From a virus (lineage: Duplodnaviria; Heunggongvirae; Uroviricota; Caudoviricetes), in the IMG/VR virus record IMGVR_UViG_2657245660_000018: DNA of 9,457 nucleotides; one strand, 5' to 3'. The position numbers and the translations under genes were made by a program. The notes beneath the pieces are model-generated. The model did not search any database and was not told the DNA's origin. It saw only the letters and a program-made list of their open reading frames with translations. Within the stretch, counting starts at the first letter, position 1; each line of letters begins with the position of its first letter. Shown piece after piece: positions 937 through 5,825 of the stretch.

Positions 937-962
937 CCCGATATGGTGATCCCCATATCGGG
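937..962. repeat. inverted repeat / hairpin CCCGATATGG-tgatcc-CCATATCGGG
   Basis: Perfect 10-bp stem with 6-nt loop, 17 nt beyond the capsid-homologue stop codon. Same motif as 819-844. No U-tract follows on the minus strand, so it is not a canonical intrinsic terminator. Confidence 0.75.
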
Positions 963-978
963 ATAGATGCTGGAAAAA

Positions 979-1902
979 TCAGCTTTTCGCCAGAACGGTG
1001 ACGGCCTTATCGAGTTTTTGCCATCCGCAATAGGTGATTGCCCTGAACGCTGTAGCGTCATTCTGGAAAAGGCTAACCGCCCCTGATTCGGTTTTTATTA
1101 CCGCCTCATCAGTTGGGGTTATAACCGTGGCTTCAACGTTAATAATCAGCTTTTGAGCGTCTATCAGCATCATGCGATCCGCCTGTTCGCTCACAATTAC
1201 CGGTATTCTCAAAAGCTCTATCTGCCAGAACTCAGCATCAGTAAGCTGTAAGGCGTTTTCTACGGGCAATATTAGCGACGACGTGGAAAGCGTGTTACCG
1301 TTCGCTATGTGCTTTTTGAAAATCTCTATGAAGTTTTCGGCCTCATCAGCACCATTAAGCACGCCCTCAGGGGATACGCCAGCCACCTCCTGATCACTGG
1401 AAAGAAATTTTTTATCTATTTCTTTCACCGATTCCGATGTGATCAAGTCTCTGATCGCTGAATTTGTACCAGGGGTGCTAAATTTGATTAGCTCGTTATT
1501 CAGCATCACAATAGCGCCAAGTTTGCACAATTTTAGCGCACTTTCGTTTACTTCTCCCTCTTTGACAGGGATTTCTTCGGCTTCTTTAAGCCATTTACTA
1601 CCCTTGCCTGATATTGAATGCAATTTTGCGCCAAACGGAAGATTAAGCGCGCTGCTGATTAGCTTGCCTGGTACAGACTGCGAAAAAATATACTCGCCAA
1701 GCTCTCTTACTATCGGCTCTGCCACCAGCGACGGCATGTTATCCGTAGTCATTCTGTTGACGATGGATTTTTCAAGAAATTTCGATACTGCCGGATCATT
1801 TCTTTTCGTCATCTCTATAGCGTCAGCATGGCTAAATTTACACGATGCCAGCACGCTGGCGGCGCGAACTGCTGACACGCCTTTCATGTTTTTACAGATC
1901 AT
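979..1902 (-). CDS. HK97-fold major capsid protein homologue (307 aa); possibly a capsid-size-redirecting capsid paralogue
   Basis: ATG at 1902 preceded by GGAGGAGGAAG. Two stretches resemble conserved blocks of the HK97-type Phage_capsid family: NSAIRDLITSESVKEIDKKFLSSDQEVAGVSPEGVLNG, and ELLRIPVIVSEQ with a C-terminal AFRAITYCGW. This is recognised by eye, not by search. At 307 aa it is short for a capsid protein with an N-terminal delta domain. Confidence 0.7.
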   Translation of the reverse strand: MICKNMKGVSAVRAASVLASCKFSHADAIEMTKRNDPAVSKFLEKSIVNRMTTDNMPSLVAEPIVRELGEYIFSQSVPGKLISSALNLPFGAKLHSISGKGSKWLKEAEEIPVKEGEVNESALKLCKLGAIVMLNNELIKFSTPGTNSAIRDLITSESVKEIDKKFLSSDQEVAGVSPEGVLNGADEAENFIEIFKKHIANGNTLSTSSLILPVENALQLTDAEFWQIELLRIPVIVSEQADRMMLIDAQKLIINVEATVITPTDEAVIKTESGAVSLFQNDATAFRAITYCGWQKLDKAVTVLAKS

Positions 1903-2053
1903 CTTCTTCCTCCTCCTGGAAGCACGGGTTTAGTGTTTCGTGAAAATATGGCATCAGAACAGCGGCGGCCTGTAACCGTATTTCGGTCGACTGCTGCTTG
2001 TCGTTCATGATTTCCGTGAGTACATCAATAGGGTCTGTGATGTATTCGCTCAT
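1892..2053 (-). CDS. small hypothetical protein (53 aa, acidic C-terminus), not in the supplied ORF track
   Basis: ATG at 2051-2053 with GAGGT 7 nt upstream; translates to MSEYITDPIDVLTEIMNDKQQSTEIRLQAAAVLMPYFHETLNPCFQEEEEDDL. Its 3' end overlaps the capsid-homologue RBS and start. The RLQAAAVLMPY segment loosely recalls the C-terminal motif of some Terminase_2 small subunits. Confidence 0.4.
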   Translation of the reverse strand: MSEYITDPIDVLTEIMNDKQQSTEIRLQAAAVLMPYFHETLNPCFQEEEEDDL

Positions 2054-2064
2054 AGTTCGCTACC

Positions 2065-2553
2065 TCAGTGTTTTAAGTCTGTTGGTGGCTTAGGGATGGG
2101 GAACCGATTTGAGTAGACACTAGCGGCATTGAGTTTTTTAACCTCTTTTTTCCCAATGCTGCCGATCTTGCGGTGGGTGAACTGGGCCAGCTTAAACGCG
2201 GCATCTAAAGCCAGTTTTGGATCTGTGTCCATGTTGTCAATCAGTATCCTGCCCATTGCTTTGATGGGGTCGGGTAGGCCGTTATCCATCATCTCAATGG
2301 TGTTAATTGATGCCCGTTCCGGTGTAACTTTTTCGGTAACTTTCTTTGTAACTTTTTTCGGTTTTGTAACCTGAAAAGTTACATCAGAAGTTACAGCCTT
2401 AAGATACTTTTTCACCTCAGGATCGTTGGATAGCTGCCAGCCTTTAACCCTTGCGGTCTTTTCGCTGTATCCCGCATGTATAGCGGCTTCCGTGGGATTT
2501 GCGCCCCTTGATAACGCATCAGCAAACCGCTTTTTTTTGGTCGTTAATGCCAT
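2065..2553 (-). CDS. terS: terminase small subunit (TerS, Terminase_2-like N-terminal HTH), 162 aa
   Basis: The protein from the internal Met reads MALTTKKKRFADALSRGANPTEAAIHAGYSEKTARVKGWQLSNDPEVKKYLKA, which matches the TerS N-terminal DNA-binding signature (KKxRF...AAIxAGYSEKTA). GAGG lies 8 nt upstream of the ATG at 2551-2553. The track ORF begins at GTG 2694 and would add 47 residues of implausible composition. A low-complexity VTKPKKVTKKVTEKVT repeat follows the HTH. Confidence 0.8.
   Translation of the reverse strand: MALTTKKKRFADALSRGANPTEAAIHAGYSEKTARVKGWQLSNDPEVKKYLKAVTSDVTFQVTKPKKVTKKVTEKVTPERASINTIEMMDNGLPDPIKAMGRILIDNMDTDPKLALDAAFKLAQFTHRKIGSIGKKEVKKLNAASVYSNRFPIPKPPTDLKH
2324..2394. 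repeat. periodic GTAAC / GTTAC array inside terS (candidate pac or TerS-binding site)
   Basis: GTAAC at 2324, 2336, 2348 and 2366 (12, 12 and 18 bp apart), then inverted GTTAC at 2378 and 2390. Includes the palindrome TGTAAC-ctgaaaa-GTTACA. Confidence 0.6.
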
Positions 2554-2577
2554 GCAAAAACCTCGTTTTGAGGGGGT

Positions 2578-2601
2578 GTAACTTTTCGTGTAACTTTTTT
2601 G
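2578..2601. repeat. two more TGTAACTTTT direct repeats (12-bp spacing) in the terS leader
   Basis: tgtaacttttcg at 2578-2589 and tgtaactttttt at 2590-2601, 25 nt upstream of the terS ATG on the minus strand. Confidence 0.6.
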
Positions 2602-2671
2602 AAAAGCAAAATTTTCTACGAATGAGACGGGGGGCGGTGTCCAGGGTGATCGACTTTCCGGCCGGAACACT

Positions 2672-2680
2672 CCCCCCCCC
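2672..2680. repeat. homopolymeric tract, 9 x C (G9 on the coding strand)
   Basis: tccccccccc read directly at 2671-2680, between the stop of the 2684-2845 ORF and terS. It sits immediately after an in-frame ATG (2680-2682) of the extended terS reading frame. Confidence 0.9.
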
Positions 2681-2683
2681 ATG

Positions 2684-2845
2684 TCATTGCTCACCGAGTA
2701 ACGAGATCAGGCCTTCAACTTCATTACTCAGCTTGTTTATTCGTGTCTCAAGCTCTGCGATCTTTTCCATCAATGGCGCTATAGTGTCTCTTGTTTCCTC
2801 GCCAATGGCCTTAATGATGCTTGCCTCGCGTTCTGTGATAGCCAT
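2684..2845 (-). CDS. small hypothetical protein (53 aa, predicted helical / coiled-coil-like), not in the supplied ORF track
   Basis: ATG at 2843-2845 with GGTGAGG 8 nt upstream; translates to MAITEREASIIKAIGEETRDTIAPLMEKIAELETRINKLSNEVEGLISLLGEQ. It starts 3 nt after the stop of the upstream 64-aa gene, and its TGA stop is at 2684-2686. Confidence 0.5.
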   Translation of the reverse strand: MAITEREASIIKAIGEETRDTIAPLMEKIAELETRINKLSNEVEGLISLLGEQ

Positions 2846-2848
2846 TTG

Positions 2849-3043
2849 TTATGCCTCACCTGTTGCAATGCCCAGTCTTTCGCGTAACAGCACACGTGCA
2901 AGATGACCTATTGTTGGCGTGGCGGCTCTGCCGTATATACCAGCTTCATTCATCCGGCGAATAACATCGAATTGAAGTTTTTTAAGCTCGTTTAGGATCT
3001 CGTGATCAATCATCACGGTAGCGCTTTGCTTTATCTCTTCCAC
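2849..3043 (-). CDS. small hypothetical protein (64 aa), first gene of the packaging operon; possibly DNA-binding
   Basis: GTG start at 3041-3043 with a strong AGGAGG 7 nt upstream. An AT-rich putative promoter lies at 3060-3110 (TTGATT ... AATACT on the minus strand). No family recognised. Confidence 0.5.
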   Translation of the reverse strand: MEEIKQSATVMIDHEILNELKKLQFDVIRRMNEAGIYGRAATPTIGHLARVLLRERLGIATGEA

Positions 3044-3130
3044 TTTGTTTCCTCCTGATACTTATCATCGCATAATCAGTATTTTCGATAGATTATCATT
3101 AATCAACCATTTTTTAAGATATGAGAGATC

Positions 3131-3155
3131 GAAAAAAAGCCGGATTGCTCCGGCT
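3131..3155 (-). terminator. rho-independent terminator (minus-strand transcripts)
   Basis: Stem AGCCGGA (3138-3144) and TCCGGCT (3149-3155) with loop TTGC. On the minus strand it is followed by a U7 tract (plus-strand A-run 3131-3137). It lies 19 nt after the stop of the 3174-3482 gene. Confidence 0.8.
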
Positions 3156-3173
3156 ATGTGCTCACTCCTTCGG

Positions 3174-3482
3174 TTATTCTCCAGTGCTTTTAACGTTGAT
3201 GGTTGTTACCTGTTCCGCTTCTGCAATCTCCCGCTCTGTCAGCGTGGCAAAGTTTGCCGCCGCCGTGGTCATGAATGCGCTTATTAGTTCGGGATTCTCC
3301 TTCGCGTATCCTTCCCGTGTGTGGCGGTCTATAACTTTGATTGCCACCTTTAGGGAAAGCTCTGTCATGTCTAACGCTTTATATTTTTGCTGTGTTCTGT
3401 CTCTGCGCATTTTGGTCATTTGTCGCCCCTGATTCATGTTTTCGGTCGGCATGTTTGTTAAGTGATTTTGATGTATGCACAT
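3174..3482 (-). CDS. hypothetical protein (81-102 aa) downstream of the origin
   Basis: ORF from the track. The most plausible start is the ATG at 3417-3419 (AGGGG 6 nt upstream), giving 81 aa; the ATG at 3482 has a more distant G-rich stretch. No family recognised. Confidence 0.5.
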   Translation of the reverse strand: MCIHQNHLTNMPTENMNQGRQMTKMRRDRTQQKYKALDMTELSLKVAIKVIDRHTREGYAKENPELISAFMTTAAANFATLTEREIAEAEQVTTINVKSTGE

Positions 3483-3530
3483 TTATTTTTACCCCCCTCG
3501 TTTAAAAAGTTTTAGGTTGTGGTGCACCTC

Positions 3531-3755
3531 CTCTACCTCTTCTACCTAATCATCTTTCAGGTCAGTAATGGCGCGGCTTTCAGATGGGTAGAGGACTTTT
3601 CGTGGCCCTCTACCCATCCTCTACCCGCCCCTCACAAACGACCTTAATCATGGTAGAGGGGGTAGAGGGGTTTTATTAGCCTTCTACCTATCCCTCTACC
3701 CACTTATCATGTTGAATAATATGCGTTTATTTCATTCAGGTAGATGGGGTAGAGG
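3531..3755. repeat. iteron array, candidate replication origin (11 copies of GGTAGAGG / CTCTACC in alternating orientation)
   Basis: CTCTACC at 3531, 3540, 3608, 3619, 3682 and 3694; GGTAGAGG at 3587, 3652, 3661, 3739 (GGTAGAT variant) and 3748. Paired copies are 9-12 bp apart. AT-rich stretches flank the array (3481-3515, 3761-3780). It lies immediately 3' of the primase gene. Confidence 0.75.
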
Positions 3756-3769
3756 GCTTTTACAAAAAA

Positions 3770-5524
3770 TTATAAAAACGCGTCACAATCATCCGTTGTA
3801 ATTGCGTTGGTCTGCGTTACTCCCTTAACTTTTCGCGTAATATATTCATGTCCGTAAACTTTCGCCGCTGGCTTCATGGCCTTGCTGAAATCAGCCACGT
3901 TTAGCGGCTTGCTTCTTCCTGCGTATGCCATAAACGCCAGATAGACGCGGTAAAGGCTGTTTCTGGTCGTGTACTTCACGGAATCGCCACCGCCACCCAT
4001 CATCAGGCCGCGCGCTTCCTCCAGAAAATTCAGGAACTGGCAAAACTCAATAACCGGATCTGTCTGTTGCTTTATCGCCAGTGCTTCATCACCGTCGCGC
4101 TGTTCCAGTAATAAAGCCCGTGCCTTTTCAGGGTCAGCAAAATTAGCCAGCAAGCGGCGGATAATCACAGGGATTTCAGCCGCGACCTTCTCCGGCAAAT
4201 CCTTGTCCTTTTCTGCCTCGCTAACGATATTGTCAAAGCGAAAAATAACCCGACGACGTGCCACGCCTCCGGCCCGTTCGGTGAATATCATCGGGTTGTT
4301 GTTGGTCGCCAGCACCACCGCCCTGATTACCGCCGTGAAACGCTTTTCATATTTCGGGTTAATTTCCACGGGGTCGCCGCCCGTGATTTTCTTGATGCCC
4401 GTTCCTTCGCCTGTATATTTCGGCTGGTCAGCCAGGACGATAAGACGACTCCCGACAACCTGCGCGCGCCCTCCTGCATCATCGAGTGATGTCATTTCAG
4501 CGCTTACCGTGTTCTGTTTCCCTGCCAGAAGGCTGGCTATGTGCGTGAATGTACTTTTACCGCTACCGCCGTCTCCGGTGGCCTCAATAAACATCTGCCA
4601 GTCGTACCGGTTCGCCATAATCATGTACAGCGCGGCACATATACGCATCATCTTGCGCGGGTCTTTTCCGGCTGCGTGATCAAGCCATTTGTGAAAGTTT
4701 GGCGCGTTGTCGCGAATGTTCTCCCCAGGTGCTGGTGGCGTGTACTCAATGCCGTTGTGCGTGGTGATCCAGTTCTCCGGCGTGTGCGGGGAAAATTCCC
4801 CCGTTTTCAGGTCAAGCGCACCATTGGCGAACGGCAGCAAATCGCAGGACGGCTCCCCCATTGGTTCGGCAATAACTTTTAACGCTTCAACGGCGTTATT
4901 GATTACGCGCTTGCTGAAAGTGGCCCTGTGCTCTGAATAGATCGCCACCATTTCGCGGCTAAGTTCCATTGTGCTGACCGGACACCATAACCCGCCGCGC
5001 CATACGTGAACGATTTCACTTTCAGGATGTACGCAAACGCCATCAAAGCGATCGGAAAGCAGCTGAGCGCGTTCACTGTCCGCCATCTGCGAAAGTTGCG
5101 CCTTTTGCTTTACCGGAAGCTCAACGAACAGACCTTCAGAAAGATTCTGGCGCTCACGGGCCAGATATTCGCGCCAGTTCTCCACCTCCTGAACGTGCAT
5201 TCCCTCAGGGTAAAAATTTGCATCCTGTACACCTGCCGCCGCCAGCTTCTGACCAATCGCCTTTATCATTACTGGCGCAAGATATCCGGCCCTGAATATG
5301 CGTACTGATTTTCGGCCTTCCGGCACAATTTGCAGCTTATCCAGTTCGGATAACTGCTGATCCCCAAGCCACACAGGAGGCTCATTATCTCCGGCTATAC
5401 GCGCGTCATGTTCCTGCCACTGTTTTGCATGTGCCCACGCATCACTACCCGCGAAAATAATTACCTCTGTGTCTTTGTGTTTTATTCCGCGTGACTGCTG
5501 TTTTACGTTCGGTGCAAGTTTCAT
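3770..5524 (-). CDS. replicative primase-helicase, P4 / D5 family C-terminal NTPase domain (584 aa)
   Basis: Walker A GDGGSGKST, followed by RLIVLADQP and ITGGDPVEINPKYEK as in the phage/plasmid primase P4-family C-terminal domain. The N-terminal ~250 aa is not assigned. GGGGT lies 6 nt upstream of the ATG, which overlaps the stop of the upstream gene (ATGA at 5521-5524). Confidence 0.85.
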   Translation of the reverse strand: MKLAPNVKQQSRGIKHKDTEVIIFAGSDAWAHAKQWQEHDARIAGDNEPPVWLGDQQLSELDKLQIVPEGRKSVRIFRAGYLAPVMIKAIGQKLAAAGVQDANFYPEGMHVQEVENWREYLARERQNLSEGLFVELPVKQKAQLSQMADSERAQLLSDRFDGVCVHPESEIVHVWRGGLWCPVSTMELSREMVAIYSEHRATFSKRVINNAVEALKVIAEPMGEPSCDLLPFANGALDLKTGEFSPHTPENWITTHNGIEYTPPAPGENIRDNAPNFHKWLDHAAGKDPRKMMRICAALYMIMANRYDWQMFIEATGDGGSGKSTFTHIASLLAGKQNTVSAEMTSLDDAGGRAQVVGSRLIVLADQPKYTGEGTGIKKITGGDPVEINPKYEKRFTAVIRAVVLATNNNPMIFTERAGGVARRRVIFRFDNIVSEAEKDKDLPEKVAAEIPVIIRRLLANFADPEKARALLLEQRDGDEALAIKQQTDPVIEFCQFLNFLEEARGLMMGGGGDSVKYTTRNSLYRVYLAFMAYAGRSKPLNVADFSKAMKPAAKVYGHEYITRKVKGVTQTNAITTDDCDAFL

Positions 5525-5820
5525 TTTTTACCCCTGAATACGTTAAGCATCTTTTTTATTTCCTGAATATTGGCGCGTGCTTTCTCCCTGCTGGTGGGCA
5601 CGTTACGCGGTACAGCCTGCACCAGAGAAAAATCACGATCGAACTGATAAACAGGCATAACGCAATCATATTCGTAGCCTTCACGGCGGTAAGTTACGCG
5701 CCGTTCCTCCACGCCCTTAATCATTACCGTGCCGCCGTACTTATCGCGGTAAATATCCCCGCACATGAATTTAGTGCGAGTTTTGCCGCTGGCAGTTAAG
5801 CCAGGATATTTAAGTTTCAT
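5521..5820 (-). CDS. hypothetical protein (99 aa), translationally coupled to the primase
   Basis: ATG at 5818-5820 with GGAGA upstream. Its stop overlaps the primase start. No family recognised. Confidence 0.55.
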   Translation of the reverse strand: MKLKYPGLTASGKTRTKFMCGDIYRDKYGGTVMIKGVEERRVTYRREGYEYDCVMPVYQFDRDFSLVQAVPRNVPTSREKARANIQEIKKMLNVFRGKK

Positions 5821-5825
5821 TATTT

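Follow-up and report, generated by a model that had tools for sequence, protein, structure and literature searches.

The replication origin of a phage-inducible chromosomal island (PICI) is the region immediately 3' of its replication gene, in which two sets of iterons flank an AT-rich region (PMC6092414). In the island EcCICFT073, a thermosensitive plasmid carrying pri-rep together with the putative origin gave colonies at the restrictive temperature, and a plasmid mutated in rep (pri) gave none (PMC6092414). In the Staphylococcus aureus pathogenicity islands (SaPIs), rep is followed directly by 6-12 iterons, and an AT-rich region is bordered on each side by at least two iterons running in opposite directions (PMC9371898). 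The SaPI Rep protein is a self-loading helicase whose C-terminal winged helix recognises the iterons; probably two hexamers are loaded, one per side (PMC9371898). Here, we describe a computational analysis of a 9,457-nucleotide stretch of DNA, IMG/VR record IMGVR_UViG_2657245660_000018 (hereafter the window), which we identify from its sequence as essentially one complete Gram-negative phage satellite of the PICI type, with cspD-clpS as its attachment site. We present evidence that an array of iterons at 3530-3755 is very probably the vegetative replication origin of this island, and that it would be recognised by Pri-Rep, a protein that the island itself encodes immediately upstream.

The array consists of 11 copies of GGTAGAGG or its complement, eight exact and three with one mismatch, and occupies 226 bp of the 287-bp gap between the pri-rep stop codon and the next gene. 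Eight exact copies compare with 0.10 expected in the window, and this number was reached in none of 200 shuffles. When up to one mismatch to GGTAGAGG was allowed, 11 of the 13 matches in the window fell inside 3530-3755, as did every one of the 11 exact GGTAGA hexamers (2.4 expected in the 9,457 bp). An earlier note, made by a model from the letters of the window, had described this cluster of 11 copies and proposed it as the element's origin. The cluster is borne out by these counts, with the correction that it begins at 3530, one base before the start then given; its end at 3755, 14 bp from the pri-rep stop (3770), is unchanged.

Because pri-rep lies on the minus strand, we read the array in the sense of this gene (replicase or primase sense), in which a forward iteron (F) reads CCTCTACC. 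The six primase-proximal iterons form module A (3652-3755): iteron 1 (3748-3755, plus strand, F, GGTAGAGG), iteron 2 (3739-3746, plus, F, GGTAGATG, one mismatch), iteron 3 (3693-3700, minus, reverse or R, GGTAGAGG on the minus strand), iteron 4 (3681-3688, minus, R, GGTAGAAG, one mismatch), and the exact copies iteron 5 (3661-3668, plus, F) and iteron 6 (3652-3659, plus, F). The five distal iterons form module B (3530-3625): the exact copies iteron 7 (3618-3625, minus, R), iteron 8 (3607-3614, minus, R), and iteron 9 (3587-3594, plus, F), followed by iteron 10 (3539-3546, minus, R, GGTAGAAG, one mismatch) and iteron 11 (3530-3537, minus, R, exact). The 11 copies are grouped as five pairs and a singleton at 3587. 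The partners of each pair are direct repeats, with start-to-start distances of 9, 11, 9, 12, and 9 bp that place them about one helical turn apart, and the orientation flips from pair to pair, (--)(+)(--)(++)(--)(++) in order of position. Forward and reverse partners 9-12 bp apart had been claimed previously; the spacing holds, as does the alternation between pairs, but within a pair the repeats are direct and not inverted. In replicase sense the complete layout, with spacers in bp, is F3F - 38 bp (74% AT) - R6R - 16 - F3F - 26 - R5R - 16 - F - 40 - R3R.

The 38-bp spacer of module A (3701-3738, 74% AT) lies between inverted iteron pairs, with the iterons at 3681 and 3693 (minus) on one side and those at 3739 and 3748 (plus) on the other, and ranks among the least stable 30-mers of 3300-3900. 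A further AT-rich tract, on the primase side of the array (3756-3780, 20-mers 85-95% AT), overlaps the stop codon at 3770-3772, and the far-side flank (3483-3529) is weaker, at 62% AT. Of the AT-rich flanks in the earlier note, the one next to pri-rep is pronounced and the opposite one less so; the internal spacer, which we take to be the most relevant of the AT-rich tracts, had not been singled out there.

The array was compared with 80 related loci obtained from IMG/VR by an alignment-based scan, and with loci added from E. coli, Shigella, Serratia, Morganella, the induced element vB_KppS-Ant, and P4; a scan of genome contigs with a single protein returned 3 loci. Across approximately 85 loci, at least 6 and in nearly all cases 9-12 copies of a short core lie within 420 bp 3' of the gene. 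Lower counts were confined to one locus that ends 149 bp after the gene and to five TGTATACC-class loci with 6 copies each. When 46 distinct GGTAGA-class arrays were aligned with that of the window, conservation was 87% in the core columns, 62% in the spacers, and 40% at iteron positions 7-8, a pattern that, as read from the alignment, is the footprint of a bound site and not of a conserved sequence block. In replicase sense, the iteron reads CCTCTACC in the window, T(G/A)TCTACC (TRTCTACC) in EcCICFT073 and L057, TGTATACC in L086, TGTTCAT in L008 (Morganella) and L083, CTGTTCAC in L007 (Serratia), and TGTTCACC in P4, vB_KppS-Ant, L077, and L010. By this comparison the iterons of the family are variants of one 8-bp frame, the core of which shifts as the protein diverges. 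In five IMG/VR loci (L086, L087, L089, L091, and L092), whose Pri-Rep proteins are ~52% identical to that of the window, TGTATACC units are mixed with TGTTCA-type units in one array.

Despite these changes of iteron, the arrays retain one layout, in which two forward iterons (F-F) are followed by 35-40 bp of AT-rich sequence and then by R. The equivalent place is taken by a spacer of 35-40 bp and 69-86% AT in EcCICFT073, L057, L010, L077, P4 ori, and P4 crr. The EcCICFT073 array is arranged as F3F - 40 (78% AT) - R - 16 - F5F3F - 25 - R5R - 16 - F - 40 - R3R; that of vB_KppS-Ant, whose Pri-Rep is 41% identical and whose iteron is different, begins F2F - 35 (86% AT) - R13F3F0F; and P4 ori, in alpha sense, is F2F - 35 (83% AT) - R - 14 - F3F2F. 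These three arrays and that of the window could be aligned collinearly.

A natural exchange of the region is provided by the published PICI EcCI11128. The segment of the window from the next gene through the capsid gene (937-3420) is 95% identical in DNA sequence to EcCI11128, and the segment containing the DUF4222 gene and the replicase N-terminus (5151-5835) is 78% identical. Between these flanks homology ends at 5151 and returns at 3420, and EcCI11128 instead carries an unrelated AAA_25/RepA-type helicase. Neither GGTAGA nor TCTACC occurs anywhere in the 9.3 kb of EcCI11128. This swap indicates that window 3421-5150, which comprises the helicase core and DNA-binding C-terminus as well as the array, is exchanged as one replicon cassette; by its sequence distribution the array travels with the replicase and not with the downstream packaging genes. 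In the 200-bp gap 3' of the EcCI11128 helicase gene (positions 6386-6586 of locus L093), approximately eight AAGTGGGGA repeats in both orientations surround an AT-rich stretch, the counterpart in this sister island of the array of the window, and locus L094 likewise has a AAGTGGGGA-type origin-like array 3' of a RepA-type helicase gene.

The exchange bears on the idea that the repeats serve the terS-capsid module, either as operators or promoters or as a packaging signal (pac/cos-type, bound by TerS). Small terminases often bind repeated short motifs, and the array does lie upstream of a module with genes resembling terS (2065-2694) and a capsid gene. In EcCI11128, however, the downstream module is 95% identical from exactly the next gene, yet it is preceded by a different array and helicase, and in EcCICFT073, Nissle 1917, and others this type of array precedes unrelated genes such as ssb and perC. 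Moreover, a scan of the gap found no sigma-70-like promoter and no intrinsic terminator, and a comparison of the array with 50,697 phage records gave no match. The EcCI11128 swap and the varied downstream genes dispose of this idea, and we consider it extremely unlikely. The lack of a terminator in the scanned gap fits the unidirectional read-through transcription described for such islands (PMC6092414). Comparison of the array with plasmid records gave weak partial matches in 3 records only. No DnaA box (up to one mismatch), integration host factor (IHF) consensus, or GATC site was found at 3450-3800, an Rfam search of 3300-3900 gave sub-threshold noise only, and a literature search with the literal iteron strings returned unrelated primer sequences only. 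A 42-residue open reading frame (ORF) at 3519-3647 on the plus strand was dismissed as a gene, since 1-bp indels fall across it in relatives.

The identification of the array as the element's origin thus upholds the proposal of the earlier note, on the evidence of the PICI context, a Pri-Rep 97% identical to that of EcCICFT073, a layout kept in ~85 relatives and in P4 ori, and the EcCI11128 swap.

The presumed initiator and helicase, Pri-Rep, is a 584-residue protein encoded at 3770-5524 on the minus strand, with matches to D5_N, DUF5906, Pox_D5, and TIGR01613. It contains a D5_N and superfamily 3 (SF3) helicase core at residues 153-417 (4274-5068, minus), with the Walker A motif GDGGSGKS at residues 317-324, and residues 177-432 match the structure of the SaPI5 PriRep protein (7OLA, E value 6e-15). 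The C-terminal residues 488-576 (3797-4063, minus), used alone as a query, match PDB entry 1KA8 (E value 9e-7) and are predicted to form an origin-binding winged-helix domain. Entry 1KA8 represents the winged helix of P4 alpha (PMC2777425), and the title of one reference names it the origin-binding domain of alpha. Pri-Rep is 97% identical to the EcCICFT073 Pri-Rep (584 residues) and 40% identical over 434 residues to P4 alpha 324-756, which spans the helicase and origin-binding domain. Its N-terminal ~140 residues gave no alignment to the DnaG-type primase part of P4 alpha, and the N-terminal 150 residues matched no Pfam family or PDB sequence. From these matches, "primase" is an annotation label, the recognisable parts being a helicase and a predicted origin-binding domain, and the use of that name in the earlier note does not hold, as the N-terminal ~140 residues match no primase family. 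Residues 1-125 (window 5150-5524) are 66% identical to the N-terminus of the EcCI11128 helicase (L093 4985-5350), and the N-terminal ~125 residues look like a portable domain joined to two different helicases. The best 120 homologous proteins were near-identical E. coli proteins only. An AlphaFold2 model of Pri-Rep built from 20 sequences (96-98% identical) had a mean predicted local distance difference test score of 37.6 and was not usable. In a low-confidence model the N-terminal domain shows an alternating strand-helix pattern.

Within the GGTAGA class, the last two positions of the iteron vary together with two Pri-Rep residues. Units ending NG (mostly GG, as in the window) pair with V-A-[DE]-F-S-K at residues 543-548, and units ending YA pair with V-N-[DE]-F-G-K. 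This association holds in approximately 64 of 65 loci, among proteins that are 71-98% identical overall. Residues 544 and 547 lie inside the segment aligned with 1KA8, beside the invariant F546. The pattern is weakly suggestive of a specificity switch, and it may reflect a single evolutionary event. Locus L074 is intermediate, with V-G-D-F-G-K and mixed units.

Several observations weigh against the array as origin and against its recognition by Pri-Rep. Deletion of ori in EcCICFT073 significantly lowered colony numbers and did not abolish colony formation (PMC6092414). The iterons of the window differ from those tested in EcCICFT073 at 2 of 8 positions (CC in place of TR), so that function is transferred to the window by inference. 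The spacer at 3701-3738 is just 74% AT, is off-centre in the array (two iterons on one side, nine on the other), and does not rank with the least stable sequences when the window is taken as a whole. Pri-Rep also lacks a recognisable primase domain. With respect to recognition, L015 (IMG/VR) is the one clear exception to the residue association among about 65 GGTAGA-class loci, with V-A-E-F-S-K and units ending CA/TA; it is possibly a recent recombinant, or a sign that residues 544 and 547 do not set specificity. The codons for these residues are ~120 bp from the array, and plain physical linkage could explain the association.

A last difficulty is that in P4 the array that directly follows alpha is crr, which is required in cis but is not the start site. 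The array of the window could, by the same token, be a crr-like cis-acting helper only, with replication starting at another site in the island. In the P4 GenBank record crr (4291-4590) comes right after alpha and the true ori is 4.5 kb away, and the distal five iterons of the window have no AT-rich spacer of their own. In the window, however, all 11 GGTAGA cores are in one array, no second Pri-Rep-binding cluster was found in the island, and the six proximal iterons, F3F-38(74% AT)-R6R-16-F3F, are collinear with P4 ori itself (F2F-35(83% AT)-R-14-F3F2F). In addition, EcCICFT073 pri-rep and the equivalent region alone sufficed for plasmid maintenance (PMC6092414). We therefore regard a helper-only role as very unlikely and prefer the array as the origin.

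A related question is whether part of the array, mainly the distal five iterons together with a conserved non-iteron block, serves as a copy-number, incompatibility, or second-factor site. This block, CAGTAATGGCGCGGCTTTCAG, is 21 bp long (3566-3586) and lies in the 40-bp spacer of module B. It is found exactly in 44 of 92 fetched loci of both iteron subtypes, does not correspond to a site for DnaA, IHF, or Dam, and equals the iteron cores in conservation although it is not an iteron. The array has a two-module build whose order is swapped in two IMG/VR loci, L072 and L074: in the 420 bp after their pri-rep genes, the distal module comes first and the P4-ori-like module second, with ~86 bp between. 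This reversal indicates that the modules are separable. In L072 and L074 the corresponding spacer carries an inverted repeat in place of the 21-bp block. The binding of P4 alpha is reportedly regulated through a second winged-helix protein, Cnr. In the SaPI model, on the other hand, iterons on both sides simply load two hexamers (PMC9371898), and a copy-number or second-factor role would be compatible with the array as origin, not opposed to it. As an alternative explanation we consider it highly unlikely.

With the array as origin, the following sequence of events can be proposed. After induction, Pri-Rep would be made and its C-terminal winged helix would bind the 8-bp iterons CCTCTACC. Its subunits would assemble in opposite orientations on the inverted pairs beside 3701-3738, where the duplex would open; the SF3 helicase part would then load itself on the opened strands, and host polymerase would copy the excised circle. 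The distal module (3530-3625) would be a second Pri-Rep-binding module, possibly the equivalent of P4 crr fused to the first. We infer the binding of Pri-Rep to the iterons, the melting site, the number of subunits in a hexameric assembly, and what the second module does, with all steps from binding onward drawn from EcCICFT073, the SaPIs, and P4. A dimeric initiator, which the earlier note took the alternating orientation to suggest, is not favoured: Pri-Rep is an SF3 helicase of hexameric type with one winged helix per subunit, and the partners of each pair are direct repeats. The inversions between pairs would instead fit two assemblies of opposite orientation, turned towards or away from one another across the AT-rich spacer, in line with the proposal made for SaPI Rep (PMC9371898).

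The remainder of the window accords with a satellite island. All of its convincing genes are on the minus strand: a tyrosine integrase gene, int (8234-9457); a regulator gene, alpA (7148-7372); an Icd-like gene within the listed ORF 6431-7138; a DUF4222 gene (5521-5820); pri-rep; three small ORFs (2684-3482); the terS-like gene; and an HK97-type capsid-like gene (979-1902). The next gene after pri-rep, in the same transcription unit, is at 3174-3482 (phrog_1231), with its ATG at 3480-3482 and a GGGGGG Shine-Dalgarno sequence before it. E. coli genomes of O157:H7, O103:H2, and O121 carry the island, with 97% identity, in the interval from clpS to cspD, and in one of them the array is 100% identical. 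The attachment (att) core ATGATAGTTAT at 92-102 is the core published for the cspD-clpS PICIs EcCIIHE3034 and EcCI18098, and the island ends there, so that the window spans the whole element.

Two other parts of the island stand out. A 257-residue ORF between int and alpA (7464-8237) lies in a stretch of 27-34% GC (GC profile 7600-8200) and gave no match in Pfam, NCBIfam, PHROG, or PADLOC; it resembles an accessory gene of foreign origin, at a position where cargo is carried in such islands. At the other end, 57 bp at 499-555 match a portion of the roi/anti-repressor gene of Shiga toxin-converting and related lambdoid phages with 90-91% identity. This segment sits in the gene-free island end 103-978, and the remainder of that 880-bp region is without a phage match. 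None of the P4 hijacking genes sid, psu, delta, and epsilon was among the Pfam, NCBIfam, and PHROG matches of the window ORFs.

Among known systems, EcCICFT073 is the closest. It shares with the window the island type, the gene order, a 287-288-bp intergenic region that aligns throughout, 11 iterons, the invariant core TCTACC, and the same 21-bp block. The two differ at iteron positions 1-2 (T(G/A) in EcCICFT073, CC here, in primase sense), at Pri-Rep residues 544 and 547 (N and G in EcCICFT073, A and S here), in the proximal module (FF-AT-R-FFF in EcCICFT073, FF-AT-RR-FF here), and in attachment site and downstream module. Each sequence-level rule of a SaPI/PICI-type origin is found in the window, namely the position, 11 iterons of 8 bp, an AT-rich region, and a helicase with a predicted winged helix, and the island itself has int, alpA, unidirectional genes, a PICI att site, and a size in the ~8-15 kb class. 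The SaPIs differ in that their iterons are unrelated in sequence and in that the AT-rich region of the window is off-centre; there is no described SaPI counterpart of the distal module or of the 21-bp block.

The classical plasmid iteron origins (pSC101, R6K, F, and P1) have 17-22-bp direct repeats, a non-helicase Rep, DnaA boxes, and host DnaB loading. They resemble the window in placing repeated initiator sites beside an AT-rich stretch. They differ from it in that the iterons of the window are 8 bp long and in both orientations, no DnaA box was found, and the initiator is itself predicted to be a helicase.

The array resembles those of P4 in place and layout: the position of the array 3' of the gene is that of crr, each 120-bp unit of which is FF - 35 bp AT-rich - RR directly 3' of alpha, and the six proximal iterons are collinear with P4 ori. 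The binding of alpha to the type-1 repeats TGTTCACC is taken here from the annotation of GenBank NC_001609, paper titles, and general knowledge. The P4 iteron TGTTCACC and the window iteron CCTCTACC have 5 of 8 bases in common in the same 8-mer frame, and relatives at 41-55% identity use TGTTCAC itself. The pattern of P4 ori, FF-35-R-14-FFF, is matched exactly by EcCICFT073 and L010; the window has FF-38-RR-16-FF, with six iterons of which one is flipped or shifted. P4 differs in having ori and crr 4.5 kb apart, compared with a single fused cluster in the window, and in that alpha has a DnaG-type primase domain that is not recognised in the Pri-Rep of the window.

Origins of this kind, with the same position and reliance on Pri-Rep, had been described and tested before, in the near-identical island EcCICFT073. 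What is new is modest: the PICI origin is homologous to ori and crr of P4, the iterons of the family form a stepwise series, islands exchange the cassette, and an invariant 21-bp block lies inside the array. We put forward, tentatively and with considerable doubt, that the PICI origin did not arise independently, contrary to what the 2018 description implies, but consists of fused P4 alpha-binding regions, a P4-ori-like module of six iterons and a module of five, built on one frame, TGTNNACC, that was retuned by small changes in the winged helix. In this proposal, A544/S547 as opposed to N544/G547 would go with the change of positions 1-2 from TR to CC and define a separate replicon-specificity group among E. 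coli PICIs that are 97% identical, and the 21-bp block would bind a further factor. The analysis pins down the probable cis-acting replication site of a satellite island in Shiga toxin-producing E. coli lineages (O157:H7, O103:H2, and O121), and its comparative result, a frame shared with P4 that appears to have been retuned stepwise and exchanged as a cassette, should be of some use for studies of satellite replication and compatibility.

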